The notes beneath the pieces were generated by a model that was not told where the DNA came from, did not search any database, and saw only the letters and a program-made list of their open reading frames with translations. Positions 1 to 60,609 of a stretch of 64,000 nt of DNA are shown here, piece by piece. The position numbers and the translations under genes were made by a program. The stretch's first letter is position 1, and each line of letters begins with the position of its first letter. The DNA comes from Eledone cirrhosa (Eukaryota): positions 60,202,001 to 60,266,000 of the forward strand of contig OZ024744.1 in the NCBI GenBank assembly GCA_964016885.1, read 5' to 3'.

Positions 1-1043
1 AAAGCCGACTGATCACATGCAAGAAACCAGCCTCTGTACCACACCATTGTTTGTGCTACATCAAAAATAAACGTATATTTCCTCTCTAATTTCTGCTGTT
101 GAAATCATTATTATGTCACTCGTATCTCAATAACATCTATAACTAATACTGCTAAAGTGGTGACCGACGTAAGAATTTAACGCAGCCCTTCTTTTTCATT
201 CAGTTGAACTTTTATTGCCACGTTGCCGGCCTTTTTCGCAACTTGCGAAGATACAATATATTCCTTTCAAAGTTTTTTTTGAAAAATTAGTAGTATTTCA
301 AAAACTTTTTGCTACACTCGACAACAACAACGACAGCAGCAGCAGCGACAACATTGTTTAACCACTGACCAAAACAGGGAATAGTGAGTGGCAGCTTCAT
401 AGCCTTACCGACGCAAACCACCACACATCGGAAATATCAAAACGATTCATTCGTGTAAATAATTTAAACCAGCCCTTTTTATTCACTTGAATATTTCACT
501 GCCGTTGCCAACTTTTTCGCAACTTACAAAAAAAAAAAAAAGAAAAAAAAGTATTTTTCCAAGGTGGCGTTGCGTTCCTTCCCAGTTTTGTAATTTTCCG
601 ACGAACACATTTTTTGAACACATGACTGATCAAGAGAGAAGAGAAGAAATTTTTTTTTTGTGAACATTACTGCCCCGCATGGGAATATACATGCCTTACC
701 TTTTTCTAAGGGCTTTTTAGCCACTGGCTACCTTTGTTGATATCCAACGTGGATATATTTAAAAAAAACAAACATTTTTTTCTCCTCTTTTTTACCTTAT
801 TTGATTTGGCTGGTTCGTTGAAGCAATGCGAGGGGACAGACGTTGAAGGAAAATTTTTTTTTTAAAGATATATATATATGTATTTTATGTATTTTTCATA
901 TTTCCTAATGTTTTGAATGTCTGTTTCTTTTTGCCCTTTAACTTTTTCTCAATATTGGCTGTTCTCTTTTTACTGTACAAGGGTACATTAATTGTTGTTT
1001 AGATATATATGTATATATATTTTTTTTGATTTTAAACGTTAAC

Positions 1044-1730
1044 ATGAATGTGCCACATTTGCCCGCCTTTACTGGAAAACCTAAGATGTGGTTTGCCCAG
1101 TTACAGGCGTATTTTACGGTCTGTAAGACCGAATCTGACCAGCGCCTCGCTGTACTGATTAGCGGCCTTCCCCCTAATCTAGCAGATTCGGTCCAAGACC
1201 TAATTACAGACCCCCCTTCTGACTTGACGTATGAGTCTTTGAAGGGCGAGATTTTGAGGAGAAATTGTAAGTCGGTAGAGAGTCGTTTTCGGTCGCTGAT
1301 CGAGGTCGAACGATTAGGTGACAGGACCCCTACCGCTTTTCTCCGGCATTTGCGGGATTTGAGCGATTCCGAAGATCAGGATAGCCCTTTCCTGAAGCAA
1401 TTGTTCTTCTCTCGCCTACCTCAAGAGGTACAGGTGATCCTAGCCCATATGCTAGAGGTGAATACCCTGGATCACATTGCTGTCTCTGCTGACAAAATTG
1501 TAGAGGTGACAAATTAATCACCACAATGGAAGCCATGACTCGTCAAATGGCGGAGTTGTGCAAGGAATTCAGGTCCTTTGGACGGCAGAGGAGCCGCTCA
1601 TGATGTTATTCAACTTCTCGCCACCGTAGCCCTTCCAACACACCAGGAACACCATATTGTTATTACCATGAAAGATATGGTAAAAAAGCCGCCCGTTGTA
1701 GGCCTCCTTGTGCTTACGGGGGAAAAGACG
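1044..1730 (+). pseudogene. gag: Gypsy Gag (stop at 1515, frameshifts)
   Basis: LPAF..P.MWFAQLQAYF, LGDRTPTAFLRHLR, FFSRLP; C-terminal CYYHERYG..A.RC..PC knuckle near 1657-1712. Confidence 0.85.
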
Positions 1731-3326
1731 ACCAGAGTCACTAACGGCGGATAGTGCGCTCTGCGAAACAACATCTAACCGCCACTTTTTCATTGAGGAC
1801 CTGCTGTCAGGTAGAGCTTTTCTGGTTGACACAGGTGCAGTTTGTTCCGTATGGCCTGTGTGTTGTATGAAGGAGACTCCCCCTGAGACGCCTATTGAGT
1901 TGCAGGCAGTAAATTGTTCGCCGATTCGAACTTTCGGACAAATCTCGTTACCTTTGCAGTTTCGTAATCTGCGGCGCGAGTTTAAATGGATATTTACTGT
2001 CGCTGCCTTGCCGTATCCGATTCTAGGCGCGGATTTTCTCCACCATTTTTCATTGACGGTGGACCTTCGTCGTAAACGCCTAATTGATGGCATCACGGGA
2101 TTAACTGTTGTTGGCAAGGCAGCAGGAGTTCCAACGGTTAGCCCGACATTTTTTCTTGCTAACACCGGTGATCCTTTCCATGCGTTGTTGAACTCGTTCC
2201 CGCAACTGACTCGGGGAAATTTTCGAGTTGATGAACCTACTCATACCACGGAGCACTTCATATCTACAACTGGTGCTCCCGTTTTCTCTCGTCCTCGTCG
2301 CTTGCCTCCGGACAAACTCAAAGCAGCACGATCAGAGTTTGATCATATGCTGCAAATGGGGATTATTCGTCCGTCCACGAGCCCGTGAGCGTCCCCATTG
2401 CACATGGTACCGAAAGCGAATGGCGATTGGAGACCTACTGGAGATTATCGACGCCTGAATTCGATAACGGTACCGGACCGTTATCCTATCCCTCATCTGC
2501 AGGACTTTGCGTTCGTTGCAGGGATGCAAGATATTCTCCAAACTGGATTTAATTCGTGCGTACCATCAAATTCCTGTCCATAAAAATGACATTCCAAAAA
2601 CGGCTATAGTTACGCCATTTGGGTCATTCGAGTTTTTGACTATGCCGTTCGGATTAAGGAATGCCGCTAGTACTTTTCAGCGGTTTATGGATGAGGTTAC
2701 TCGCGGCCTCGATTTCGTCTATACCTATATTGACGACCTGCTCATTGCTAGTTCTTCTCCAGAGCAGCATACGCACCATTTGAATCTTCTTTTCCGCCGA
2801 TTGGAGGCGTATAACGTGCAGCTTAATGCACCCAAATGTGTTTTTGGTGCTGAGTCACTGACTTTCTTGGGTCACGTCATCGATGCTGACGTTATTCGAC
2901 CCCGGCCTGAGCGAGTTAAGGTCATAGAGGATTTTCCTCCACCGACCTCACTACGTCAGTTACGCCAGTTCTTAGGTCGGGTTAACTTTTATAGGCGTTT
3001 CGTGCCATATTGTGCAAAATTGCTTTTCTCCCTGACAGAAATTTTGAAAAATTGTCGGAGGAAGAACAAAGATATCTCTTTGACAGACACTCAACTTGCT
3101 GATTTTCAGCACGCCAAAACTGTTTTGGCTAATGCTTCGTTACTGACTCACCCGGTACCCGGTGCAAAGCTAACGCTTTGTGTTGATGCATCGGATATCG
3201 CTGTGGGCGCAGTACTACAGCAAACATCAATGGTTACCAGCAACTGCTGGAGTTTTTTTCCAAAAAGCTAAATCCTGCTGAGACGCGCTACAGCACCTTT
3301 GGAAGAGAGCTTTTAGCCATCTATTT
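1730..3326 (+). pseudogene. pol: Gypsy Pol (protease, RT, partial RNase H), frameshifted
   Basis: [60 protein letters not shown]. Confidence 0.93.
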
Positions 3327-29654: not shown

Positions 29655-29672
29655 TACACATATACATATATA
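29276..29672 (+). mobile_element. Probable Helitron 5' end, interrupted by the Gypsy element inside a (TA)/(CA) tract
   Basis: A|TCTGTATATATAAAAC start resembling 5274 and 35474. Confidence 0.45.
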
Positions 29673-30131
29673 TGTACAGCCACCGGAAATAACATCTGTG
29701 AAATATACAGCGCCATCTACCTGTTTAGCTAGCTACCTCAATGTGAAACAAAACAAAAAGCCCTTAGAAACCATCAGAATAAACGTCTCCACAGCGTCTA
29801 AACATCAAACGATTATTTCTGTAGTCGACTTTTGGCAGAGTCAGCTAGCGTATTGTTGTTCCTTTACTCTGCCACGCTTTGTCACTCACACACGCCTTGT
29901 ACCTTGTATCATCACTTCATGTGAAAATAAATAGCTGATCGAATTTACATCTCGCCTTGCTTCGTCCTTTTCAACTTGTGCTTTCGTCTGTTCATCCTCA
30001 CCAGTGACAACAGTTCTTTTAAGGGCTATCTTCAGATCTGATCAGACTGTATGCGATAACAGTTCTTCTAAGGGCTATTCTCGGATCTGATCAGAAGTAG
30101 TGACTAGACTGACTAACCACGTCGCTACAAT

Positions 30132-30163
30132 TGGTGACCCCGACGTGAGTCGAACGCGCAACC
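30132..30163 (+). promoter_or_regulatory. tRNA-Trp primer-binding site (extended)
   Basis: TGGTGACCCCGACGTGA is the complement of the animal tRNA-Trp 3' end (recalled sequence), 2 nt after the LTR. Confidence 0.9.
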
Positions 30164-30188
30164 AGATAGCACCTAAGAAAATACCAAC

Positions 30189-33100
30189 ATGGACATGTCA
30201 CAAACGACAGAGGCCGAGATACCAACCACACAAGCGGCGTTAACATTGAAAGTCCCCATTTTTTTGTCCAATGACCCGACTCTGTGGTTCGCTCACATAG
30301 AAGCGCAATTCGCCGCTAACAATTAAGAGCGATTCCGCAAAGCTCACCTACATCATTGGGTCTGTCCCGCCAGAAGTCTTGGCCGGGCACGGTGTCATAT
30401 GAATTATTCTGCAAGGAATTGATCAAGCGAACGACCGCATCACCGCAGAGACGACTCAACTAACTCGTGTCTGCAGAAGAATTGAGGGACAGAAAACCGT
30501 CCCAACTATTGCGAAAGATGAGACAGCTGATGGAAGACCAGCCGCTTTCAAAAGATCTGCTGAAATTGCTGTTTATACAGCGCTTGCCCTTATCGATGCA
30601 GGGCATTCTGGCGTCGACCAACGAGTCAGCAACCCCGGAAGAACTGGCGAGTGTCGCAGATAAGATCGCTGAGGTGTCAAACCCTTTTGCCTCAGTAGCA
30701 CAGGTAGATTGTCGGACGAACCCTTACATAGGGTCATCGGACTCCACCTCCAAGATTTCAGAGCTGTGGGCTATGATCAGAGAGCAGGCTGGTCAAATTA
30801 AAGCCCTCTCAAACCAATTAGAGAGCCTGACCTTGCAAACACACCGGCGGCGCAGCAACAGTCGATCCAGGCCCTTTCACCGTCGAAGATCCAGAAGTCC
30901 TAGTCAAAATCGTGTGTCTGGCCATCTCTGCTGGTATCACAAAGAATTCGGCGCACAGGCATCTAAGTGTAGGGCCCCGTGCTCTTTCCAGAATACCACC
31001 CAGGGCCTAGCGACGACGTTCACCCCTGGTACTGAAAAGAAAAGTCGTCTATTTTTTATTAACAACCAGGCGACAGGCATCCGTTACCTCGTGGATACAG
31101 GAGCCCAGGTTAGTGTTATTCCTGTTTCATTAGTCTCGGGCAAAAGACATCCAACATCGTCCTTTCTGCAGGCAGTGAACCGATCGTCAATTCCGACTTT
31201 CGGGGAAAAATCACTGACCCTCAATTTAGGCCTGAGGCGGCGTTTTCAATGGGTATTCGTCGTGGCAGACCTGCCGACCCCTATCCTAGGAGCTGATTTT
31301 CTCCACCACTTCAACCTTCTGGTGGACATGAAGAACCGGAGGCTTATTGACACCACCACAAACCTCACTGTGAGAGGTATATTTACGACGCAATCCACAG
31401 TGAGCCCTGTAATTTGCCAGTCAGAGCCTTCGCGGTACAGCGGCATTCTCCAGAAATACCCAGACATCACTCGCCCGGTATTTAAGGATGGACCTATTAA
31501 ACATAGTGTCACACACCACATCGAGACAAGAGGACTACCCACAGCTTCCCGACCAAGGAGACTGCCTCCAGACCGATTGAGAATCGCCAAACAGGAGTTT
31601 CAACACATGCTGGACCTCGGAATCATTCGCCCTTCCTCCAGCAACTGGTCTGCACCCCTACATCTTGTTCCTAAAAAAAACGAGAATGATTGGCGACCAT
31701 GTGGGGATTATCGTGCACTTAACAATTCTACAGTACCCGATAATTACCCTGTACCTCCCCTGCACGACTTTTCTGCCTCTCTGTAAGATGCACGCATCTT
31801 TTCCAAGATAGATTTGGTGCGTGCATATAACCAGATACCTATGGAGCCTGCAGATATTCCAAAGACCGCAATCACAACATCGTTCGGTTTATTTGAATTC
31901 CTGCGAATGCCGTTCGGTCTGCGCAACGCTGCACAAACTTTTCAGCGGTTCATTGACACCGTGTTACGCGATCTACCCTTCGTATACGCGTATATTGACG
32001 ACGTGCTGGTAGCAAGTACTTCCGAGCAAGAACACAAGAAGCACTTAGATCTCCTTTTCCAACGTTTGGTTGAGTACAGTATCATCATCAACCCCAGCAA
32101 GTGCTTTCTCGGCGTTCCTTCACTGTCCTTTCTCAGGCACATCATCGATAAAGACGGCATTCGTCCACTTCCCGAGAAAGTGGAAGCTATCCGCGTTTTC
32201 CCGCACCTACATCACTTCGGAAACTGCGTGAATTCCTCGGTCTGGTGCATTTTTATAGGCGTTTCATCCCTCATTGTTCCGCCGCAGCCAGACTCCTCAC
32301 GGACCTTCTTCGTAACCGGACTCGCAAAAACGAAAGATCACTCTAAACGAGGAAGAATTAACATCTTTTAACCGCCTGAAGGAAATGTTGGCAAACGCTT
32401 CCATGCTCGTTTTCCCCAGGTCTGGCGCTCCTCTTTCGCTGCTTGTGGACGCATCAGACATGGGGGTTGGAGGCGTTTTACAACAACATGTCGACGGCGT
32501 GTGGCAACCCTTATCCTTCTTTTCTAAGCGGTTGCAACCGGCAGAAATGAAATACAGTACATTTGGCCGCGAACTCTTTGCAACCTATCTTTCGGTTAAG
32601 CATTTTTGGCACATGCTCAAAGGATCAGATTTCGTGATCTACACGGACCATAAACCATTAGATTATGCGTTCCGTACCAAACCTGATCGACATTCACCGA
32701 GAGAACTCCGACACCTGGATTTTGTCTCCCAATATTCAACTCCCAATATTCGGCATATCAAGGGGTCAGACAACGTAGCAGCCAACGCCCTGTCCCGAAT
32801 CCAGCTGAACGCAATACATGTGCATTCAGGCATCGACCTTCAACAGATCGCAGCTGACCAAGAGACTGACGAAGAGTTTATCAAGCTCCGAGATTCGCCA
32901 TTCCTCACGTTTCAGCAAGTTCCCATTCCTTCTTCTCCGGGACAAATTTGGTGCAACATTTCTCATGAACGACCATACGTACCACAGATGCATTGTCGAC
33001 AAATTTTTTCTGCTTTACACTGCCTGTCTCACACGGGAGTCCGGGCTACACAGAAACTCATCTCTGCTCATTGTGTAGACTAACATTGCCTGCCAGAAAG

Positions 33101-34074
33101 CCAAAGTCCACAGACACATCAAAACTCCACTCGGCACATTCACGCAACCTGATGCACGTTTTCATCATGTGCATATCGACATCGTCGGAGCTCTACCACC
33201 ATCACAGAACTACACACACTTGCTCACCTGCATAGATCGATTTTCCCGTTGCCCTGAGGCTTTTCCCATAAGGGATACCTCAGCGGAAACAGTCGCTAAA
33301 ACTTTGGTTTTACACTGGGTATCACGTTATGGCGCCTCAGCGAAGATAACAATGGACAGAGGACGCCAGTTTGACACCCACCCCTTCAGGGAACTGACTC
33401 GCCTGTTAGGATGTAAACACATCCGCACGACAGCTTATCACCCGCAAGCTAATGGTCTCATGGAAAGAGTCCATCGCCAATTGAAAGCTGCAATAAAAGC
33501 ATATCCAGACAAGACCCACTGGTTTGAATACCTACCACTCATCCTTCTGGGCATTCGATCCACTGTTAAGGAAGAATTCGGATACACACCTGCAGAATTA
33601 GTGTACAGCACCACCCTGGTTCTACCTGGTCAGATGGTTGCTCCCATCTCTCCTCAGGATGTTCCAGACCCAGGATCATACGTACACCGTCTTCGACAAT
33701 ATATGTCTCACCTTGCTCCTGCAAGCACCTGTCAACAGAACACGGCCAAACACGTACCTTCAGATATTAAAGATTGGACACACATTTTCGTTCGAAACGA
33801 CACCATCTCAGCTCATCTTCGACCTCCATATTCTGGCCCTTATCGTGTTCTAAAAAAATATCCGAAAAATTTTATTCTCGATCTAGATGGTAAACAGAAT
33901 TCTGTCAGCGTGGACAGATTAAAAAAAGCCATCATGGATACTGAGACAGTCTCTACACCAGAAACTCCAACAGATTGCTGTCCCAGCAAGCCACCTGTTT
34001 CATCTCCAGTCACGAGAAGCGGACGACGCGTCCATTGGCCCGCCAAGTTGGCACAATATGTGAATTACCGTTAA
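30189..34074 (+). pseudogene. pol: Gypsy gag-pol with multiple stops and frameshifts
   Basis: [84 protein letters not shown]. Confidence 0.95.
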
Positions 34075-35473
34075 CCTCAAGTGAGTTTCTTCATCATTCT
34101 TCTTGCAAAACATTCCCATTTCCCTTGTGTTTACTATTTCCAGTTTCAAATACAATGAACTTTCTGCTTGAACAATTGCAATTTTTAGTGACCATGTGCT
34201 CATGTCACGAAGAACATTATTTATTATGAACATTATTTATTACAAACACTATTTAAGAACAAACATTGTGTATAGCATTGTGTATAACATTTTTTTTTTT
34301 TCTCTCTCTTGTTTTGCAAAAATTTGTATTTTTCTTGTTCTGCAACATTGATTGTGTAATTGCCATAATTTTTATATACATACAAGGCGTGTACATATTC
34401 TGTTTTTCATGCACACTACAAAACCACGTTTGTTTCACCTTTTGGTTCATACACGGAGCAATAGATATTTGTGTCCCTCTAACTCTTACACTACAAAATG
34501 TTTTCACTTTGATCACGCATTTCACAAATCGCATCCTCAAAACATTGGCCTTCTTTTTTCACGTACACATTCACTCAATAGCTCGAGAATGCCTCGCTAT
34601 TTTTTTACCACATGCATTCGCTCAAGTCATATGGTTTGGAGCAAACTGTTACTTTTAGGCAACATGCTTACAGCCATTCAGTTCACACATTACGGTTATC
34701 TTCACTGCCCAGTTAGACTTTTTGTCACGCAATTCACAGGCAGCTCAAGCCAAATTGCAACAGGCTCATTCATCACGCCTGCATAAATCTGGTCAAAGTC
34801 ATTTTATAGTTTATTTCTTTTTTCTCTTCCTGACACACACATCTTTCCATATCATCTCTACATCGACTCTGTCCTGTACTCGATGATCACAAAATTTCAC
34901 AACGTGCTGGACACTCCTGGGGCTATTGTCATGACAAATGCACCACTGGCCCATTACTATACGATATTTCGCTCTTTTGTTGTGCAAAAGATCTGGCAGG
35001 CGGCTAATGTACAGCCACCGGAAATAACATCTGTGAAATATACAGCGCCATCTATCTGTTAGCTAGCTACCTCAACATGAAACAAAACAAACAGCCCTTA
35101 GAACCACCAGAATAAACGCCTACACAGCATCTAAACATCAAACGATTATTTCTGTATAAATAGAGTGGTTCCAAACACTTTCTCCAGTCGACTTTTGGCA
35201 GAGTCAGCTAGCGCATCGTTGTTCCTTTACTCTGCCACGCTTTGTCACTCACACACGCCTTGTACCTCGTATCGTCGCTTTATGTGAAAATAAATAGCTG
35301 ATCGAATTTACATCTCGCCTTGCTTCATCCTTTTCAACTTGTGCTTTCGTCTGTCCATCCTCACCAGAGACAACAGTTCTTCTGATCAGACCGTATGCGA
35401 TAACAGTCCTTCTAAGGGCTATTCTCGAATCTGATCAGAAGTAGTGATCAGACAGACTAACCACGTCGCTACT

Positions 35474-40767: not shown

Positions 40768-43700
40768 TGTGGGACTGTGTGGAGGAGGTGACGTCAGATG
40801 TGGACACTTGACCGGAGGCAGAGGAGGAGTGAGGCGAGATGCGTTTCTGGGGCGACGTCCGTAGGCTGGGGCTATACGTTTCCGAGGCGGCGTCTGTAGG
40901 CTGCGTCCATGTGTTTCCAAGGTGGCGTCCGTAAGGCATCTCTCGTGGCGACTTGGAGCAAGACAGACGTACCGGATTAAGCTGCAGCTTGGCGACTTGA
41001 TTATAACGATGAAGATTGATGCCCGGCTTGGAGTGAACTAGCAGTGGAATAGCTTTCTCACCACAAACTATTTCGGCACATGAAGAAGTACAATTGAAAA
41101 AAAAAAAAAAAAAAAGCAGGGACAAAGACTATCTTGTTTTATCACTTACCGCGACCTTACCGCAGGACTAAAGAGATGGCGACGAGATTACGGTTGAGCG
41201 GTGAAGTACTTAAAGCTTTTACCAGTGAAGGAGACATTATCGCTTGGGTGTGAAAGGTTCGGGTGGTCGCCGAGCTACAAAAGATAGACGATGTGGCCGG
41301 TCTCATGGCACTATATCTCGAGGGGGATGCGCTAGCATTATATCTCGAGATGGACGAAATCAGCCAGAGGGACATGCACAAAATTGAACGGCGTATGATG
41401 GAAGCGTTTGCGGAAGGTCCGTGTACCGCGTTTGCCAAGCTGGCAAGGTCAACGTATGGATATTTTTGCTGCGGAGATAAGGAGATTGGCCATGCTGGCT
41501 GGGTTTCAGGTCGAGTGCAAGTGTGCAGTACGGCTGGCATTTATAAACGGATTTCCGGATGACATCGCGGTGAGACTGAAGCAAATACCTGGCTACAAGG
41601 AAATGGAGATGCGTACATTGGTAGAGCAAGCCCACATCATAGCGGAAGATGCTAAGAAGAGTGTTGCGGCAATAGCGGCGATGGAGGCCCAGGCACCGAC
41701 AGCGAAATTCCGAAAGGACGACAAACACGGCGAAGAGTCGCCCACACACGTTTAGGGGTCATTGTTATAGGTGCCAGGGTGCACACATGGCGAGAGATTG
41801 TAAGGAGTCGACACCAGACATAATTTGCTACCGGTGTAGGCGGCCAGGCCACATCGCTACCAATTGCAACCAGGGAAACGGTCCAAGGGGAGTTATTACG
41901 CCGGTAGCTAACCCTCGAGTGTAGAGGCGCTGCCTGTGGTGAAAGTCCTGGTGAAGGGAAAGCCATTACGAGCCCTCGTGGACACAGGATGTACAACGAC
42001 ACTGGTGACTACGGGGGTGGTGGAAAAGTGGAGAGGGAAGAGCATCATAAGGGCAGTCGGCGGTAGGAAGATTGAAGGTAGAGGTTGCAGTGAGGTGGAG
42101 ATTGTGGTAAGGGGAAAGAGAATTAGGCTTTCAGCCATTGTGGTCGACTGCGTAGTGGATGGAATTGACCTGGTTATGGGCATGGAAGCGATTGGCCGAT
42201 TAGGAGGCGTGACAGTGAACGATGTCGGAGTAACATTTGGTGGCGCTGCACCAGCATGCGTTGTGTGTACGCATCAGGAGAGCGAGAAGGCCCACGAGGA
42301 AAAATATGCCGCTCATACCGTACAGGATAAGGACTTCAAGGCCGTGTTCGACGGGCAGCGATGGGTTGTTGAGTGGTACTGGAAGGGAGAACCCCCAACA
42401 CTGAAGAACAAAGTGGGCTCCTATCAGCACACACTGAAAGGAGATACTAGGAGAGAGTTTGAGTGAGAGGTAGAGAGATGGATCGAGGAGGGCATACTGG
42501 TTCCCTGGAAGGAGGAGGTGAAGTGTGGGGTGCTGTTGTTAATGGCTGTGGTGCAACCCATGAAGAACAAGGTGAGACCAGTGTTGGATTTTCGGGAGCT
42601 GAACGAGCATCTGTCGTGTCAGACGGGTGGTGAGGTCACGGATGTCTGCGGGGAAACTCTGCGCGAGTGGAGACGTATGACGAGGGCTTCCATGATCGTC
42701 GACTTAAAGTCGGCATATCTACAGCTACGTGGAGAAGCTGTGGCAGTATCAGCTGGTCAGGTATGAGGGCCGGACATATTGCCTGACCAGGCTCGGTTTC
42801 GGGTTGAACTCTGCACCGAAGATCATGGCGGCGGTCCTCAAGACCGTTCTGGGAAAGACTGACAAGATGAAGAGGGTCACCAATTCCTACATCGACGACA
42901 TCTTAGTGGACGAGACTATAGTGTTGGCGGCGGAGGTTACGGATTGACTGCGAAGCCGTCAGAGGCGTTGGAGGGAGGAGCCGCACTAGGACTTAGGCTG
43001 TGAAAAGACAAGACGGGCACGTTGGAATTTCGGAGGAGAAATGAAGTCCCGGAACTAGGCCCAAACATGAATAAACGGGAACTCTTCTCGGTGTGTGGAA
43101 AATTGATAGGTCACTACCCAATCGCTGGGTGGTTCTGGGCGGCATGCAGCTATGTCAAGAGACGAGCGGACGGGGTTACTTGGAGTGACAAGGTGGGAGA
43201 GAGGATGATGGCCATGATACAGGAGATCGTGGGGAGGGTGAAACCGATGACTCGGTGCAAGGACGCTGGTATGTCCCTGAATCGCAGAGCGGGACCGTAT
43301 GATGCGATGCCAGTAGCATAGCGCTGGGTGTCACGTTGGAGATAGGAGGTGTTGAGGTCGAGGATGCAGCCTGGCTCAGGAATAAAGATGATTGTAACCA
43401 CATCAATGTGGCCGAACTGGACGCGGTGTTGAGAGGGGTGAACCTCACCCTGAAGTGGGGACTGCGCACCATCGAGATACGCACCGACTCGGCTACTGTA
43501 CTCAGATGGGTGAGGTCAGTGCTCACCAGTGAGAAGAGAGTGCGAAGGAGAGGGGCGGCAGAAATGCTGATAAAGCGCCGCATGGGAACTTTAGGAGAGC
43601 TGGCCACCGAGTCCGACCTGAGGCTGAGCTTAGTCTTCGTGCCCTCAGAGAAAAATAGGGCGGACGTTTTAACCAGGGTGAAGAAAGCCTAGATGGAAGC

Positions 43701-44535
43701 GCCGGAGGATGCAGAAGAGGGGATAGTCGCTGTGTGTCGGCTGAGCGAGTAGGACCTTAAAGGGTTGCATGCCATGCACCACATGGGAGTGAATAGGACC
43801 CTGTTCCTAGCCAGGAGAATCGATTCCGACGTTCGCAGAGACAGTGTCCAGAGAGTGGTCAGAGGCTGCGTCCGATGCCAGTCTATTGATCCCGCTCTGG
43901 GTGTGCACGAGTCAGGAAGTCTCCTGGTGGATCGCGACTGGAAATAATTGGCGGTGGATGGAACACACTACCGACAGGGAACATACCTCTCAATGGTTGA
44001 TTGTGGACGATATGAAGGGAAATGAAGATGGGAACTGCGGAGGAAATCACGCAGACGTTGAGAGAGATATTCTTGGAGCGGGGCCCTGTGGATGAACTGC
44101 TGATGGATAATAGCGCTGTGTTCCGCTCGGAGGCGCAGAGGGAAATGCTTGATGGATGGAAGGTGGACCGCTTCTTCAGAGCAGCATACAGGCCGAGCGG
44201 ATGGCGGATTATCACATGCAGCAGAGTGAGGAGGAGATTGATCCTTGAGATCAGGGGGGCACGTGTGGGGCTGTGTGGAGGAGGTGATGTCAGATGTGGA
44301 CGCTTGACCGGAGGCGGAGGAGTGAGGCGAGATGCGTTTCTGGGGCGACGTCCGTAGGCTGCATCCATGTGTTTCCGAGGTGGCGTCCGTAAGGCATCTC
44401 TCACGGCGACTTGGAGCAAGACGGACGTACCGGATTAAGCTGCAGCTTGGCGACTTGATTATAACGACGAAGATTGATGCCTGTTTTGGAGTGAACCAGC
44501 AGACTCGCGGTAAGTGGAATAGCTTTCTCACCACA
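40768..44535 (+). mobile_element. LTR retrotransposon A (atypical lineage), both LTRs present, 5-bp TSD TTATC
   Basis: LTRs 40768-41065 and 44264-44535 (TGT..ACA); PPT-like AGATCAGGGGGG; gag with 2 CCHC, ALVDTGC, VLDFRELN, YIDDILV, HINVAELD, HHCC finger, partial integrase (LLMDN). Confidence 0.96.
41066..41077 (+). promoter_or_regulatory. Non-canonical PBS candidate AACTATTTCGGC
   Basis: Abuts the LTR; 11/12 complementary to tRNA-Phe nt 1-12; conserved with 57197-57208. Confidence 0.7.
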
Positions 44536-53194: not shown

Positions 53195-56100
53195 TCTAAT
53201 ATATATTTGTGAAATGGGTGGTGGTTGAAATTCAGTTGTGCACGGTTAAATGGTAGTAAACGTGGTCGGACGGACATGAAAATTTACACACCTATGTAAA
53301 AAGTGCCAAGGAAGCAAATAGATGAGGTTTCAAATCTCTAACTTGAAAAATGTGGTCCCTGGGGCCCCAAAACGGTCTATTTACTATCGCTTTCGGTGAG
53401 TTATTTCCCCCTGTTCTAATACTTGGATGAGTTATTTTCCGTAGTCGCTTTCAATATTCATTGTCTTATTTACAATTTCATACAAATTTTTAAACTCATC
53501 AATTTTTTCATAACATATCAAACATAACGTTCTTTCGCTGTTAACATACAGTACCGTTTTATGAAATCGCTTCTGCAGTACCATTTTACGAAATGCCAAA
53601 CCGAAAACGGTCACTGTTTTCCATCAAAAGAAATAAAACCCTTAAATTGCGAAGAAGGGAGGCGTGTTCTCAGGTACGTTTTTACCGATATCATTTTTAT
53701 TTTTATTCTAATACATGTTAACCACCACTAACAGTAAGTAGTATTTTTCAAAGTCAAATGGTAAGTTTAAAGAATACATGCATGTAAACTTAATGAATGG
53801 GATATATAAGCCGTTTGATTGTCGAGTTAATTAATTCAGTTCTTTTTTAAATATTCATTGTAAACTTAATGAATGGGATCTATAAGCCCTTTGGTTGCCG
53901 AGTTAATTAATTCACTTTTTTTTTAAATATTCATTGTCTTATTTAAAATAACATATCAAAGACAACGTTATTTCACTGTTAATAAACTGTTGCCTTCTAC
54001 AGTACGTTTCATTTTCATTTTTCAAATACAGTTGCTCTATATTAAATTTAAATACTTCTATAACGATCATACAGTACCGTTTTATGAAATCGATTCTGCA
54101 GTAGAATTTTACGAAATGCCAAACCGAAAAAGGTCAGTTTTCTAACAAAAGAAATAAAACCCGTACATTGCGAACCCCCTGTTCTAATACTGGGGTTAGT
54201 TATTTCCCCCTCTTCTAAAACTCCACACTTGCTGCACAACAGCCACCAGAGACCACTCTTACAGCATTTTTAAAGCTTTGCTCTGTCGATGAGTTTGCAC
54301 TTACCCTCTTTTACGTCGAGGTACCAACTTACTTCACTTGGTCGAACAAAATTTGGCATCGCGGCGACAGGGGAAGGCAGTTAAGAATTGGGCAGGTGTA
54401 TTCAAAAGTAATGCCATCGGACGTGTGTACAACGTTCATCCGAAGCAACAGGAATGCTTTTTTTTAGAATGCTGCTCCATCGAATCAAAGGACCCAAGTC
54501 ATTTGCAGACCTCAGACTTTCAGACGGCTACATTTGTTCCACTTACAGGGAGGCTTGCGTGAAGCGCGGGTTACTCGAGGACGATGATCACCTGAACATG
54601 GCATTGACAAAAGCTGCTGAATGTAAAATGCCACGAGAAATGTGTCGTTTGTTTTGCAATATGTTACTGTTCTGCAATGTCGGTGAGCCACTTAAGCTAT
54701 GGGAAACGCATAAGGACAGCATGTCAGAGGACATCCTGCGTAGAGTACGAGCAAGGGTACCAGCGGCTGACTTTCATTACAACGCCAATGTATACAATGA
54801 GGCCTTCATTGACATGGATAAACGTCTAAGATCTGTTGGAGTTGGCGGTGTATTAGAATTCGGTTTGCCACAACCTGTACATAAAGACGGCGCTTTAGAT
54901 GTGGAGTTCATGCTTGAGTTGGATTACAACATCGAGGAATTGACAGATAAGGTTGCTCAAGATGAACCCAGACTTTTGCCTGTGCAGAGACGGGCGTATG
55001 ACAGAATTCTTGCCAGTGTCTTTCAAATGAGGTACGGCTATTTTTCTTGGATGCTCCAGGCGGAACAGGAAAAACCTTTCTCATAAACCTACTGCTTGCG
55101 AAGCTGCGGAAAGACAGGCAGATTGCTTTAGCGGTCGCCTCAAGTGGTATTGCGGCGACACTGTTACATGGCGGTCGTACGGCACACTCCGCATTCCAAT
55201 TGCCTATGGACCTTGTAAAGAGGGAGAATCCTACCTGCAGAATAAATCGTGGAGACTCTAAAGGATACCTTCTTTCTGAGTGCTGTTTAATCATTTGGGA
55301 CGAGGCTACAATGAGTCATAAGGCAACGTTTGAGGCTCTAGACCGAACTTTCAAGGACTTGCGTCGAAATTCACACGTAATGGGTGGAGCGACAGTACTG
55401 ATGGCTGGCGATTTTCGGCAGACTCTTCCTGTAATCACTAGAGGCACTAGAGCTGACGAAGTTAACGCATGCATCAAGTCTTCCTACCTATGGCAGTATG
55501 TCCAGAAACTAAACATGACTACTAACATGAGAGTGCATGTGCATGGCGACGCAGAATCTGAGGATTTATCAAAACAGCTACTGGAAGTTGTTAATGGAAC
55601 TACACCTGGAATCGATGAACAGCACATCCGTCTGCCGTTTGGAAACTTTGTATCAAGCATAGAGGAATTAATGTCATCTGTTTTCCCAGACCTCGAAGCA
55701 CGATTCCTTGATCACAACTGGCTGCAAGGGAGAGCTATTTTAGCACCACATAATGCCACCGTTGACGCAATGAATCAACACCTGCTTGATCAGATTCCAG
55801 GAGGTGAAGTCTCCTTCAAGTCAATTGACACCAACAAAAACGCGGACGACGCCGTCAACTATCCGATTGAATTCCTCAACAGTCAACAACCTCCCGGACT
55901 TCCACCTCATGACCTTAGACTGAAGGTTGGTGTTCCAGTTATGCTGCTAAGAAACGTGAAACCACCAGAACTATGCAACGGGACGCATCTGATCATCAAA
56001 AAAATTGGGACACGAATTCTTACGACAAAAATTCTGAGCGGACCGTCTGCTGGCGGGACAAAGTTATTATCCCCCATAAGCCTTAATCCCTTTGACGTCC

Positions 56101-56541
56101 CATTTGATTTTACGAGACGGAAGTTTCCCGTAAAACTCTGCTTTGCAATGAGTATCAACAAAGCACAGGGACAGTCGCTGCAAGTAGTTGGCCTAAATCT
56201 GACACAGCGGGTATTTACCCACGGTCAACTATACGTCGGGTGCTCACGCGTCAGCAGTCCACACAATCTCTTGTGGTAACCCAGGTAATACCAGGAACGT
56301 TGTCTACAAAGAAGCACTGCAACAACACATTTGAAGCTTCCGCCATTCCTCTTCCGTCGCCACTCAACGTCTCTCAACGCTTTTCACGTCGCTCCACTTC
56401 TCATTGTACGCCGTCCAGCCCCAAGTGCATATTTCTATTTTTTCCCTGATACAGCTTCTTTATAATAAACTTTCAATAATATTTTTCAAATTATTAACTT
56501 AATAAAAAGTGGCCCCGGGTGCAACCGGGCTCAGCTGCTAG
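53195..56541 (+). mobile_element. Helitron with both termini, Rep largely deleted, Pif1 helicase retained
   Basis: A|TC...hairpin-CTAG|T, no TSD; coding remnant about 54230-56320. Confidence 0.96.
54230..56320 (+). pseudogene. Helitron RepHel C-terminal part (PIF1 helicase), frameshifted
   Basis: GPKSFADLR, TYREAC.KRGLL, DAPGGTGKT, ASSGIAATLL.GGRTAHS, IWDE, GDFRQTLP, LCNGT, INKAQGQSL, HGQLYV. Confidence 0.95.
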
Positions 56542-56805: not shown

Positions 56806-57196
56806 AGTGAATTATGAATTGTGAAATGTATAAGACTTCTAGTTAGAAAATCCGTTACAATTCGTTGTCACGTTCGTAATTATGACATTGTCCCTCCCTC
56901 CCCCATTTTGTATGCTGATGTAAAATATGTGGGTATGGTGTGGCGTGCGGTGGCCGGAGGCGGGGGAGCGCTCGACTGGAAGGGTGCTTGGCCGGAAGGG
57001 CCAGCAGAGGGTGCTCTCTAGTGGTGCCTAGCAACGGTGTGAACGCCAGTTTGTGCAGTGCCTAGCAACGGTGTGAACGCCAGTTTGTGCAGCTCCCGGT
57101 GTTAAGCAGTTGGACGCAGGAGGACGAGGAGTAACCAGCAGTGGAGTTAGCGGCGCCTATGAAAAGCGGTAAGTGAGATAGCTTTTTCTAACCACA

Positions 57197-57208
57197 AGCT
57201 ATTTCGGC
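57197..57208 (+). promoter_or_regulatory. Non-canonical PBS candidate AGCTATTTCGGC
   Basis: Abuts the LTR; exact complement of GCCGAAAUAGCU (tRNA-Phe nt 1-12, recalled sequence). Confidence 0.75.
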
Positions 57209-57313
57209 CACTGGAAACAGATCTGATTGAAAAAAAAAGAAAAAAGCTACTGGAAAAACAGAGAGGAGTCTGTTGTTTTTTTTTTTATCACGTACCGCAA
57301 GACAAATCAGAAG

Positions 57314-58075
57314 ATGGCGACAAGACTACGAACAAGCGAAGCTATCAGGGCATTTACCGGGGAAGGTGATGTTGTCGCTTGGCTGCGGAAAGTTCAGCTG
57401 GTCGCAAGCTTGCAGAAGATAGATGTGGCGGCTGGCCTCATGGCACTGTACCTCGAGGGGGGCGCGTTGGTACTCTTCCTTGAGTTGGACGAACACAGCC
57501 AAAGAGATGCGCAAAAGATTGAGAGGCATCTGATAGATGCATTCGCCGAGGGACCGTTGGCCGCTTTTGCTAAGCTGGCGAGAATTAGATGGAATGGTGA
57601 GCGCGTCGACATTTTCGCAGCAGAAATACGGCGATTGGCTATGTTGGCTGGATATCAGGTGGAATGCGAATGCACGGTGCGGTTGGCGTTAATAACTGGA
57701 TTTCCAGACGACATAGCGGTGAAACTGCAGCAAGTCCCTGGTTATAAAGAAATGGAAATGCGTTCGCTGGTGGAACAAGCCCGGATCATAGCGGAAGATG
57801 CCAAAAAGAGTGTTGCGGCGATAGCAACTACAGAGGCTCAAGACAGCTGGCAGCGAAATGGTGAAAGGGAGGCAACCACGGCACGCGGTCGCCCACGAAC
57901 GTTTAGAGGTCGCTGTTTTCGGTGCCAGGGCCCGCACATGGCTAGAGACTGCAGAGAGTCAAGGCCGGAAATAACATGCTACCGGTGTAAGCGACCAGGC
58001 CACATCGCTACTAACTGCGACCAGGGAAACGATCCAAGGGGAACTACTGCGCCGGTAGTTGCCCCTTACGAGTAG
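57314..58075 (+). CDS. gag: Gag with two CCHC zinc knuckles
   Basis: Open frame from MATRLR; CFRCQGPHMARDC and CYRCKRPGHIATNC. Confidence 0.85.
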   Translation: MATRLRTSEAIRAFTGEGDVVAWLRKVQLVASLQKIDVAAGLMALYLEGGALVLFLELDEHSQRDAQKIERHLIDAFAEGPLAAFAKLARIRWNGERVDIFAAEIRRLAMLAGYQVECECTVRLALITGFPDDIAVKLQQVPGYKEMEMRSLVEQARIIAEDAKKSVAAIATTEAQDSWQRNGEREATTARGRPRTFRGRCFRCQGPHMARDCRESRPEITCYRCKRPGHIATNCDQGNDPRGTTAPVVAPYE

Positions 58076-58081
58076 CGGCGC
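58024..58081 (+). promoter_or_regulatory. -1 ribosomal frameshift signal (G GGA AAC plus hairpin/pseudoknot)
   Basis: In-frame slippery heptamer, 5-nt spacer, stem AAGGGGAACTAC/GTAGTTGCCCCTT; pol is in the open -1 frame; conserved at 41873. Confidence 0.8.
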
Positions 58082-60070
58082 TGCCCGTGGTGGAAGTCTT
58101 CGTGAGGGGAAAGCCACAGCGCGCCCTCGTAGACACGGGCTGTACGACGACACTGGTGACCGCGGGGGTGGCGCAGAGGTGGAGAGGGAAGAGCAGCGTA
58201 AGGGCAGTCGACGGCAGGAAAATTGAATGCCGAGGTCGCAGCGAGATGGAAATAGCGGTACGGGGAAGGAAAATAAGGCTTTCTGCCATCGTAGTAGACA
58301 GCGTGGTGGATGGGATCGGCGTGGTTATGGGCATGGACGCAATTGGCCGTCTAGGAGGCGTCACAGTGAACAACATCGGTGTGTCGTTTGGCGCCGCTGC
58401 ATCGGTATGCGCTGTGAGTGCACGACAGGAGAACCAGAATGCCCACGAGGAGAAATACCCCGCTTACACTGTGCAGGACAAAGACTTCAAGGCCGTGTTC
58501 GATGGGCAGCGATGGGTTGTTGAGTGGTACTGGAAGGGAGAACCACCGACACTGAAGACCAAAGTGGGCTGCTATAAACACACATTGAAGGGAAACATTA
58601 GGAGCGAGTTCGAGCGAGAGGTAGAGAGATGGATTGAAGAGGGCATACTGCTTCCCTGGAAGGAGGAGGTGAAGTGCGGAGTATTGGCGTTAATGGCGGT
58701 GGTGCAACCCACGAAGAACAAGGTGAGGCCGGTGCTGGATTTTCGGGAGCTGAACGAGCACGTGTCATGCCACACGGGTGCCGAGGTCACGGATGTCTGT
58801 GGGGGAAACCCTGCGTTAGTGGAGACGCATGACGGGGGGTTCAGCAATCGTAGATCTAAAGTCGGCATACTTGCAATTGCATATAGACGAGAAGCTCTGG
58901 TAGTATCAGCTGGTCAGGTATAAGGGCCGGACATATTGCCTGACCAGGCTCGGTTTCGGGCTGAGCTCCGTACCGAAGATCATGGCGGCGGTCCTCAAGA
59001 CCATTCTGGGAAAGGCCGACAAGATGAAGAGGGCTACTAACTCCTATATTGACGACATCCTAGTGGACGAGTCTGTGGTGTCGGCGGCGGAGGTCACAAG
59101 CCATTTACAGGGGTATGGACTGGCTGCGAAGCCGCCAGAAGCATTGGAGGCAGGAGCCGCGCTGGGACTTAGGCTACGGCGAGACAGGACGGGCGTCTTG
59201 GTATTCCAGAGGGGAAACGAAGTTCCAGAACTGGGCCCAAGTATAAGTAGGCGGGAGCTTTTCTCGGTGTGTGGAAAGCTGGTGGGTCACTACCCGATCG
59301 CTGGGTGGCTCCGGACGGCATGCAGCTATGTCAAGAGACGAGCGGGAGGAGTGACTTGGAGTGACAGAGTGGGAGAGAGGACGGTGGCCATGATGCAGGA
59401 GATCGTGGGGAGGATGAAGGCCGACGACCCAGTGCGGGGACGCTGGTATGTTCCCAAATCACAGAGCGGGACCGTATGGTGCGATGCCAACAGCATAGCG
59501 CTGGGTGTCACGTTGGAGATAGGAGGTGTTGAGGTCGAGGATGCACCCTGGCTTAGGAAGAAGAACGACTACAACCACATCAATGTGGCCTAACTGGACG
59601 CAGTGTTGAGAGAGGTGAACCTCGCCCTGAGGTGGGGGCTGCGCACCATCGAGATACGCACCGACTCGGCTACTGTACTCGGATGGGTAAGATCGGTGCT
59701 CACCAGTGAGAAGAGAGTGCGAACGAGAGGGGCGGCGGAGATGCTGATAAAGCGCCGCCTGGGAACTTTAGGAGAACTGGCCACCGAGTTCGACCTGAGG
59801 CTGAGCGTAGTTTTCGTGCCCTCAGAGAAAAATAGGGCAGACATCTTCATTAGGGTGAAGAAAGCCTGGATGGAAGCGCCGGAGGATGTAGAAGAGGAGA
59901 TAGCTGCCGTGTGTCGGCTGACCGAGTCGGATCTGAAAGGGTTGCATGACATGCACCACATGGGGGTGGATAGGAGCCTGTTCCTAGCCAGGAGAATCGA
60001 CTCGGACGTTAACAGACACAGTGTTCAAAGGGTGGTTAGAGGCTGCGTCCCATGTCAGTCCATTGATCCC
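58081..60070 (+). pseudogene. pol: Pol (PR-RT-RNase H-HHCC), disrupted
   Basis: ALVDTGC, VLDFRELN, YCLTRLGFGL, YIDDILV, WCDA.SIALG, HINVA, TDSATV, HDMHHMG..CVPC. Confidence 0.92.
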
Positions 60071-60609
60071 ATTGATCGCAAAGAAGTCGTAAACCACCAA
60101 CCTGGACAGCAGACTTTCATATGCAGAGGGACGAAGGGGAAATTGGTCCTTGAGATCAGGGGGGCGTGTGGATATGGTGTGGCGTGCGGTGGCCGGAGGC
60201 GGGGGAGCGCTCGACCGGAAGGCTGCTTGGCCGGAAGGGACAGCAGAGGGTGCTCTCTATTGGTGCCTAGCAACGGTGTGAACGCCAGTTTGTGCAGTGC
60301 CTAGCAACGGTGTGTGAACGCCAGTTTGTGCAGCTCCCGGTGTTAAGCAGTTGGACGCAGGCGGACGAGGAGTAACCTACATTGGAGTTAGCGGCGCCTA
60401 TGAAAGGCGGTAAGTGAGATAGCTTTTTCTAACCACAAAATATACTTCTAGCTGTTGGGCGATTCTGTAATGTAGAAATTTCAATCATTCTTCCTGTCTG
60501 TAAATCCATTCAGAAGTAAGTACTCCCGTTAGAAAATAAGTTATGCCTGCCTTTTATTTGTTTTTCCAGTATCTCCCAGGTTGGCTACGCACGTCTGCCT
60601 TCCGGAAGA

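Follow-up and report, generated by a model that had tools for sequence, protein, structure and literature searches.

Element B, a long terminal repeat (LTR) retrotransposon of 3,510 bp, occupies positions 56928-60437 of a 64,000-nucleotide stretch of the Eledone cirrhosa genome (contig OZ024744.1, positions 60,202,001 to 60,266,000; the whole stretch is referred to as the window). Its 5' LTR is followed without a gap by the 12-mer AGCTATTTCGGC, which occurs only once in the window and is the exact complement of nucleotides (nt) 1-12 of tRNA-Phe(GAA). Judged from all copies and relatives described below, the observation of a primer-binding site (PBS) for the 5' end of tRNA-Phe is real and lineage-wide. 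Very probably, tRNA-Phe nt 1-12 act as the primer, by one route or another. The system would represent a new variant of tRNA-fragment priming, most likely a Tf1-like one with host tRNA replacing the RNA of the element.

The tRNA-Phe(GAA) genes of E. cirrhosa start with GCCGAAATAGCTCAG (ARAGORN on L001-L003 and the C4 array). The complementarity to nt 1-12, originally predicted from the start of animal tRNA-Phe, is therefore exact for the host itself. The LTR edge at 57196 is fixed by the 3' LTR (60167-60437) together with the 5-bp duplication AAATA. As had also been predicted, pairing stops at this edge: the last LTR base, A, cannot pair with C13 of the tRNA. At the other end, the leader base that follows the 12-mer is no partner for the pre-tRNA leader. 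The string CAAGCTATTTCGGC occurs 527 times in the genome versus once for the reversed control, and simple arithmetic gives a chance of ~4e-6 for a fixed position to match any of ~60 tRNA 5' 12-mers. By these figures, the match to tRNA-Phe is not due to chance.

A genome search with the tRNA-side pattern gave 247 matches; among the matches listed, most belong to one tandem array. Two arrays were noted on C4. At 117.36-117.54 Mb (L005-L012), tandem units of ~1.26 kb each contain a tRNA-Phe and a tRNA-Asn gene, many of them with point changes. At 315.99-316.05 Mb (L167-L181), tandem units of ~1.58 kb contain a tRNA-like 5' part, for which ARAGORN made no call in the three units tested.

The 30 copies closest to element B by DNA carry the 12-mer either exactly (27/30) or with one mismatch (3/30). 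Another set was selected by Pol, which avoids selecting on the site: the upstream DNA of 52 of 150 Pol matches was anchored on the LTR end. The LTR end was found in 49 of these copies; 41 have the exact 12-mer, eight have one mismatch, and none has TGG (0/49). The alignment of genomic copies, which had been proposed as a check, thus upheld both the 12-mer and the lack of TGG after the 5' LTR. The first 30 CAAGCTATTTCGGC sites comprised one chance match (L093) and, among the others, several families with LTRs and leaders unlike those of element B. Of the seven fetched, five encode the Pol of this lineage; L150 and L151 gave no Pol match. Agreement between families of differing LTRs ends at the 13th base. 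Within this genome, families that share neither LTR nor leader sequence have a 12-mer running from the first base past the LTR to the position opposite G1 of the mature tRNA. Element A, a relative of B in the window that was overlooked in the original prediction, has the same site decayed by one base; the exact 12-mer is present in L148, a relative of element A.

An alignment of Pol, blind to the site, retrieved 42 loci from metagenomes. In 25 of them, representing ~21 distinct elements, a 12-mer that reads AGCT-n5-GGC comes right after ACA, with the same exact edges in all 25. The other 17 loci showed no intact LTR-gag junction or gag start (the junction is deleted in L140), and no second type of site was seen in the 25 readable ones. 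As 23 of the 25 sites came from a position-blind scan (<=2 mismatches), the pattern is not built in for them. The sites read AGCTATTTCGGC (nine loci), AGCTATCGCGGC (five), AGCTATCACGGC and AGCTATCCCGGC (four each), and AGCTATCCGGGC, AGCTAACACGGC, and AGCTGTTCCGGC (one each). LTR-adjacent changes in the position-blind scan fall only at PBS positions 5, 7, and 8, to which two 3-mismatch variants add positions 6 and 9. Changes are confined to PBS positions 5-9, opposite tRNA nt 8-4; of these, positions 6-9 lie opposite nt 7-4 of the acceptor stem, a segment that differs between tRNAs. The positions opposite A9-U12 (1-4) and G1-C3 show zero changes.

Public assemblies contain tRNA-Phe(GAA) genes whose 5' ends are exactly complementary to the two commonest variants, AGCTATCACGGC and AGCTATCGCGGC, and several of the matching contigs have a tRNA body of eukaryotic look. 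Eukaryotic-looking tRNA-Phe genes were seen in bacterial genome bins (L186-L190, L197, L200, L205, L206, L222, L227), where they probably lie on contaminant contigs. The E. cirrhosa genome has no tRNA starting with a variant complement, and it has one variant site, a point mutant, versus 527 standard sites. Two distinct branches of the Pol tree contain AGCTATCCCGGC, a recurrence that would fit host-driven change.

The Pol proteins of this lineage bear a DUF7047 domain and have named relatives from sponges to insects, the nearest in the Pol tree being Argonauta proteins; 1,289 protein clusters match at E<=1e-30. Named carriers of the lineage include Hydra vulgaris, Aplysia californica, Palaemon carinicauda, Oratosquilla oratoria, Macrosteles quadrilineatus, Nymphon striatum, and Sycon ciliatum. 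A subgroup with DUF7047 (P0305, P0306, P0310, P0313, P0317) has a longer Gag-Pol of ~1,350-1,420 amino acids (aa) in a single open reading frame (ORF), and two of its clusters bear Sycon ciliatum names. The D-E-D-D residues of ribonuclease H (RNase H, RH) and the D..DD residues of reverse transcriptase (RT) are kept in a 16-row alignment, the last D being absent only in two truncated rows. The model of RT-RNase H folds as LTR-type; by fold score, the RTs of CaMV, Ty3, MMLV, and foamy virus are tied as its counterparts, at 14-16% identity. The domain order between direct LTRs, protease (PR)-RT-RH-integrase (IN), matches that of Ty3/Gypsy. Target-site duplications (TSDs) of 5 bp flank nine of the ten own-genome elements with both ends resolved; L163 has none.

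Thirty Pol proteins were compared with family profiles at E<=1. The comparison covers 25 of the 26 families matched, the remaining one having at most one member. The integrase core rve is present in 29 of the 30 proteins. Gypsy-type RNase H (Pfam RT_RNaseH, RT_RNaseH_2) is not among the 25 families, nor are Pao peptidase_A17 and BEL-type Gag or integrase profiles. One long relative matches Gypsy-type RNase H weakly (E 0.02-0.03); a Gypsy element of the window matches these profiles at 1e-25 or better. The single weak A17 match in this genome is not recognized by the lineage profile. Of the Copia features, integrase before RT and RVT_2 were not found, and no anticodon-arm match is common to 19 elements. 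Going by these profiles, the lineage is without Gypsy, BEL, and Copia markers; its superfamily is unplaced, with the mollusc MolGy clades not set apart, and there is a fair chance that it marks an unrecognized LTR superfamily.

An LTR element requires a 3'-OH opposite the base adjoining the LTR. As U12 of tRNA-Phe is the partner of that base here, the tRNA would have to end at U12. In the mechanism that we propose, Gag would unwind the acceptor stem and the D stem and anneal tRNA nt 1-12. A cut of the tRNA at the duplex edge would then expose a 3'-OH at U12, which faces the first base beyond the LTR, and DNA synthesis would begin on the last LTR base. Finally, plus-strand strong-stop DNA would run off the 5' end of the primer, regenerating exactly the 12-nt site, at times with one base more. 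In 99 copies, the column after the site is empty in 60 and holds G in 29, A in six, and C in four, with at least six changes on the tree. This is what untemplated addition at the primer 5' end would leave, although the pattern is only suggestive.

Whether the primer is freed by the element's own RT-RNase H, cutting the annealed tRNA between nt 12 and 13 in a Tf1-like way, is in our estimate an evenly balanced matter. Three points favor an RNase H cut after annealing: the geometry, which is that seen in Tf1, a length that does not vary between hosts, and the size of described tRNA fragments, which at 16-35 nt (PMC7515703) exceeds 12 nt. In Tf1, the site is paired with the first 11 nt of the RNA, and RNase H cleavage falls between nt 11 and 12 (PMC7175516). 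In its widest form the proposal is tentative, and we see it as possible rather than probable. It would comprise a fourth mode of LTR priming, in which RT-RNase H of the element cleaves a host tRNA behind nt 12 and takes the resulting 5' fragment as primer. This mode would mark an unrecognized superfamily, with a DUF7047 Pol combining possibly DIRS/VIPER-like RT-RNase H and a DDE integrase, ranging from sponges to insects and having a site that tracks the tRNA-Phe of each host.

Several points weigh against this mechanism. The primer, the cut site, and the RNA-DNA junction are predictions from sequence. The conservation of RNase H does not point to this cut, because every LTR element needs RNase H. 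The 19 elements scanned have no extended match to the rest of tRNA-Phe in common, and the variability at the edge of the site is modest, 30 of 383 control columns having changed as often. The site of L124, a decayed copy, reads AGCTGTTCCGGC and breaks the U8 pair. Co-variation with other tRNA 5' ends had been proposed as a test in the original prediction. Of the variants, AGCTATCACGGC and AGCTATCGCGGC match tRNA-Phe starts; for AGCTATCCCGGC, AGCTATCCGGGC, and AGCTAACACGGC, no tRNA starting with their complements was found in 67 public stretches or in this genome. Co-variation of the site with the tRNA of its host is documented in a single host.

The same primer might be made by the host. Cleavage in the D loop could yield a 5' fragment of tRNA-Phe that anneals and is then shortened as far as the duplex edge by a 3'-5' exonuclease of the host or the particle; alternatively, a ready-made 12-nt fragment may exist. 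All sequence evidence fits this route equally, and priming by pre-cut half-tRNAs exists in Copia lineages (PMC6317226, PMC10886601). The size range of tRNA fragments given above, which excludes 12 nt, and a length that never shifts across hosts make a host-made primer rather unlikely. Copies recording a longer piece of the tRNA were absent among five candidate elements, none of which extends the match into tRNA nt 14-15. In three of the five, the terminal LTR base has changed from A to G, which pairs with C13, at a rate like that of other sites. An intact tRNA bound by nt 1-12 and left uncut is an improbable reading. DNA would then start from a 2'-OH (branched, retron-like) or from another primer, and the site would serve packaging, dimerization, or translational control. 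Among the 22 distant relatives for which a start was called, 18 have the gag ATG <=16 nt from the site, so that a bound tRNA could control translation, and the cut itself is a prediction. However, the site always adjoins the LTR end without a spacer, as a primer site does, no second candidate site was found beside any LTR end, and the fold is that of an ordinary LTR-type RT.

We give very little credence to another host RNA that would end in the complementary 12-mer with a free 3'-OH, the match to tRNA-Phe being incidental. The three variant sites without a matching tRNA in the limited sets scanned would suit such an RNA, but the match ends exactly at G1 of the tRNA, variation follows acceptor-stem positions, and no Rfam family was found at the locus. 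Self-priming, either Tf1-style from the 5' end of the transcript or from a splice junction inside the LTR, is so improbable that we reject it. It is favored by a donor-like GTAAGT in U5 and by an imperfect U5:site duplex of 10-11 bp in the B and A families (-11.5 to -13.8 kcal/mol), a pairing that is absent in the L146, L147, L149, and L150 families. Yet the duplexes with LTR-side sequence are too weak in the 39 upstream sequences compared (38 elements and one chance match): the best reach -7.1 to -14.0 kcal/mol versus -16.3 to -23.5 kcal/mol for a perfect partner, and only three of the 39 are reached by <=5 of 100 shuffles. The longest exact complement measures 4-7 nt, so that pairing with the transcript's own 5' end, which the original prediction had named as a rival account of the 12-mer, failed. 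Nor can two exons build 12 nt where the longest complement is 4-5 nt, and the site stays the same between families with unrelated LTRs. Two further readings were rejected. Pairing with the pre-tRNA leader is contradicted by the post-site base, which is T in 2/25 metagenome loci and 0/99 B-type copies, and a bipartite site using other parts of tRNA-Phe by the finding of only scattered 8-9 nt matches in 19 elements.

Compared with known systems, the lineage shares with Tf1, Tf2, and Tj1 (Tf1/sushi group of Ty3/Gypsy) a 5'-terminal RNA of 11-12 nt, fully paired at the LTR edge, with a cut needed at the duplex end (PMC7175516, PMC4600332). Unlike in these elements, the RNA segment would be a host tRNA acting in trans; the LTR has no matching sequence of its own, and Pol is unrelated. 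The use of a 3'-truncated tRNA as primer recalls the half-tRNA Copia lineages (Drosophila copia, Ty5, plant Osser, Bryco, and Bianca, fungal Copia and Helenus). In these, however, the site pairs with the anticodon arm, an arrangement reported for Copia only (PMC10886601, PMC6317226), whereas the lineage described here pairs with nt 1-12, uses tRNA-Phe, and has its integrase after RT-RNase H. The original prediction had named Troyka as a group to check. Troyka and the Kuafuorterviruses are likewise a stand-alone LTR lineage of aquatic animals with the order PR-RT-RH-IN, but Troyka has CG..CG ends, a 3-bp TSD, the knuckle CX2CX8-10HX4C, and the RT motif [ILV]ADD (IADD/VADD/LADD) (PMC12440569, PMC11673190), and example elements of Troyka type read CTGGCG|TGG at the LTR edge (PMC11673190). 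Membership in Troyka/Kuafuorterviridae was rejected, as the present lineage has TG..CA ends, a 5-bp TSD, CX2CX3HX4C and CX2CX4HX4C knuckles, Y(I/V)DD, and no TGG. By these features, the lineage is not a member of the Tf1/sushi, Troyka, or half-tRNA Copia groups.

Ty3/Gypsy (Metaviridae, including the unnamed mollusc MolGy clades) is similar in the order Gag-PR-RT-RH-IN, the lack of a tether, the H2C2 zinc finger of integrase, and a fold tied with Ty3 RT, and differs in its RNase H, the Gypsy-type profiles being absent from the families matched by the lineage Pol proteins. The RT motifs resemble, by eye, the Dictyostelium DIRS row of a published alignment, which is a lead only; DIRS/VIPER elements differ in that the lineage has direct LTRs, a 5-bp TSD, and a DDE integrase instead of a tyrosine recombinase. 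The top unnamed Atlas clusters are mostly from Euglenozoa among three members with a record, again a lead only.

A survey of plant elements distinguishes three primer types: a whole tRNA, a half tRNA cut in the anticodon stem, and a self-primer (PMC6317226). A site for tRNA nt 1-12 fits none of them. Such a site was undescribed in the literature searched; Repbase, most subscription journals, and some supplements lay outside this search, and a prior name or description is possible. The accessible parts of PMC10886601, PMC6317226, PMC7472051, PMC4600332, PMC7175516, PMC3118150, PMC6238403, and PMC12859917 describe no site of this kind, and those of the Troyka paper (PMC12440569) do not mention a PBS, primer, or tRNA. 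Motifs of the lineage were not found in the accessible part of the PMC11673190 supplement, and DUF7047 (PF23088) was not named in the part of the literature surveyed. The 12-mer string also occurs in a preprint on the tRNA-methyltransferase TARBP1.

If true, the proposed mechanism would bridge tRNA priming and Tf1 self-priming, since the geometry is that of Tf1 and the RNA comes from the host. It also offers a simple bench test for tRNA processing by the RNase H of a retroelement. Fragments from the 3' end of tRNAs silence elements through TGG sites (PMC7472051). The present lineage would escape these and be exposed to 5' fragments instead. Annotation tools based on TGG would miss the lineage, with its >500 sites in this genome and the 1,289 protein clusters (E<=1e-30) mentioned above.

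The features of elements B and A are listed in the table below.

Table. Features of elements B and A in the window.
Feature	Position	Strand	Remark
Element A, second family of the same lineage, TSD TTATC	40768..44535	+	Internal region 82% identical to B, LTR different
Element A primer site AACTATTTCGGC	41066..41077	+	One mismatch
Left TSD AAATA (element B)	56923..56927	+	Paired with right copy
5' LTR, 269 bp, TG..CA	56928..57196	+	95.6% identity with 3' LTR
GTAAGT, predicted splice donor in U5	57169..57174	+	Prediction only
U5 segment able to pair imperfectly (G:U included) with primer site	57175..57184	+	
PBS AGCTATTTCGGC, exact complement of tRNA-Phe(GAA) nt 1-12	57197..57208	+	Zero spacer to LTR
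Extra C at 3' edge of PBS	57209..57209	+	Column empty/G/A/C among 99 copies
Pyrimidine tract and CAG, predicted splice acceptor right before gag ATG	57272..57310	+	Prediction only
gag ORF, ~253 aa	57314..58075	+	Two zinc knuckles, CX2CX3HX4C and CX2CX4HX4C
pol: protease, RT (YIDD), DUF7047 (59246-59419), RNase H, integrase start	58015..60100	+	Frame differs from gag
Polypurine tract	60152..60166	+	2-nt spacer to 3' LTR
3' LTR, 271 bp, TG..CA	60167..60437	+	
Right TSD AAATA	60438..60442	+	

The pol of element B has a frameshift and stops and gave no match to the integrase core; the element is ~700 bp short of complete copies. Just 5' of the polypurine tract, the motif TTGAGATCA (60146-60166) is kept in L117, L119, and L121 at ~50% Pol identity. 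In the distant relatives, this motif takes the form GATCTTGAGATC, a short inverted repeat.

A leader intron is predicted from a donor-like GTAAGT or GTAGGT in U5. Its 3' end would be a CAG that lies 3-10 nt upstream of the gag ATG and in most cases follows a pyrimidine tract. The donor-like motif lies 22-29 nt upstream of the LTR end in most own-genome families examined. The same intron signals were seen in L146, L147, L149, L150, L153, L158, and element A; most distant relatives are too short for an intron. As the predicted intron spans the primer site, the translated (spliced) RNA could not be reverse-transcribed.

Two Gypsy-type elements of the window (29672-35472 and 1-3271) each have an ordinary TGG primer site and served as controls; one of them has both LTRs and Gypsy RNase H matches. 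In L120 and L122, whole elements stand head-to-tail with an LTR common to both, which may reflect tandem copies or assembly collapse. Just upstream of element B, at 54412-56279, lies a PIF1-like helicase frame, which we take to be probably a Helitron remnant.
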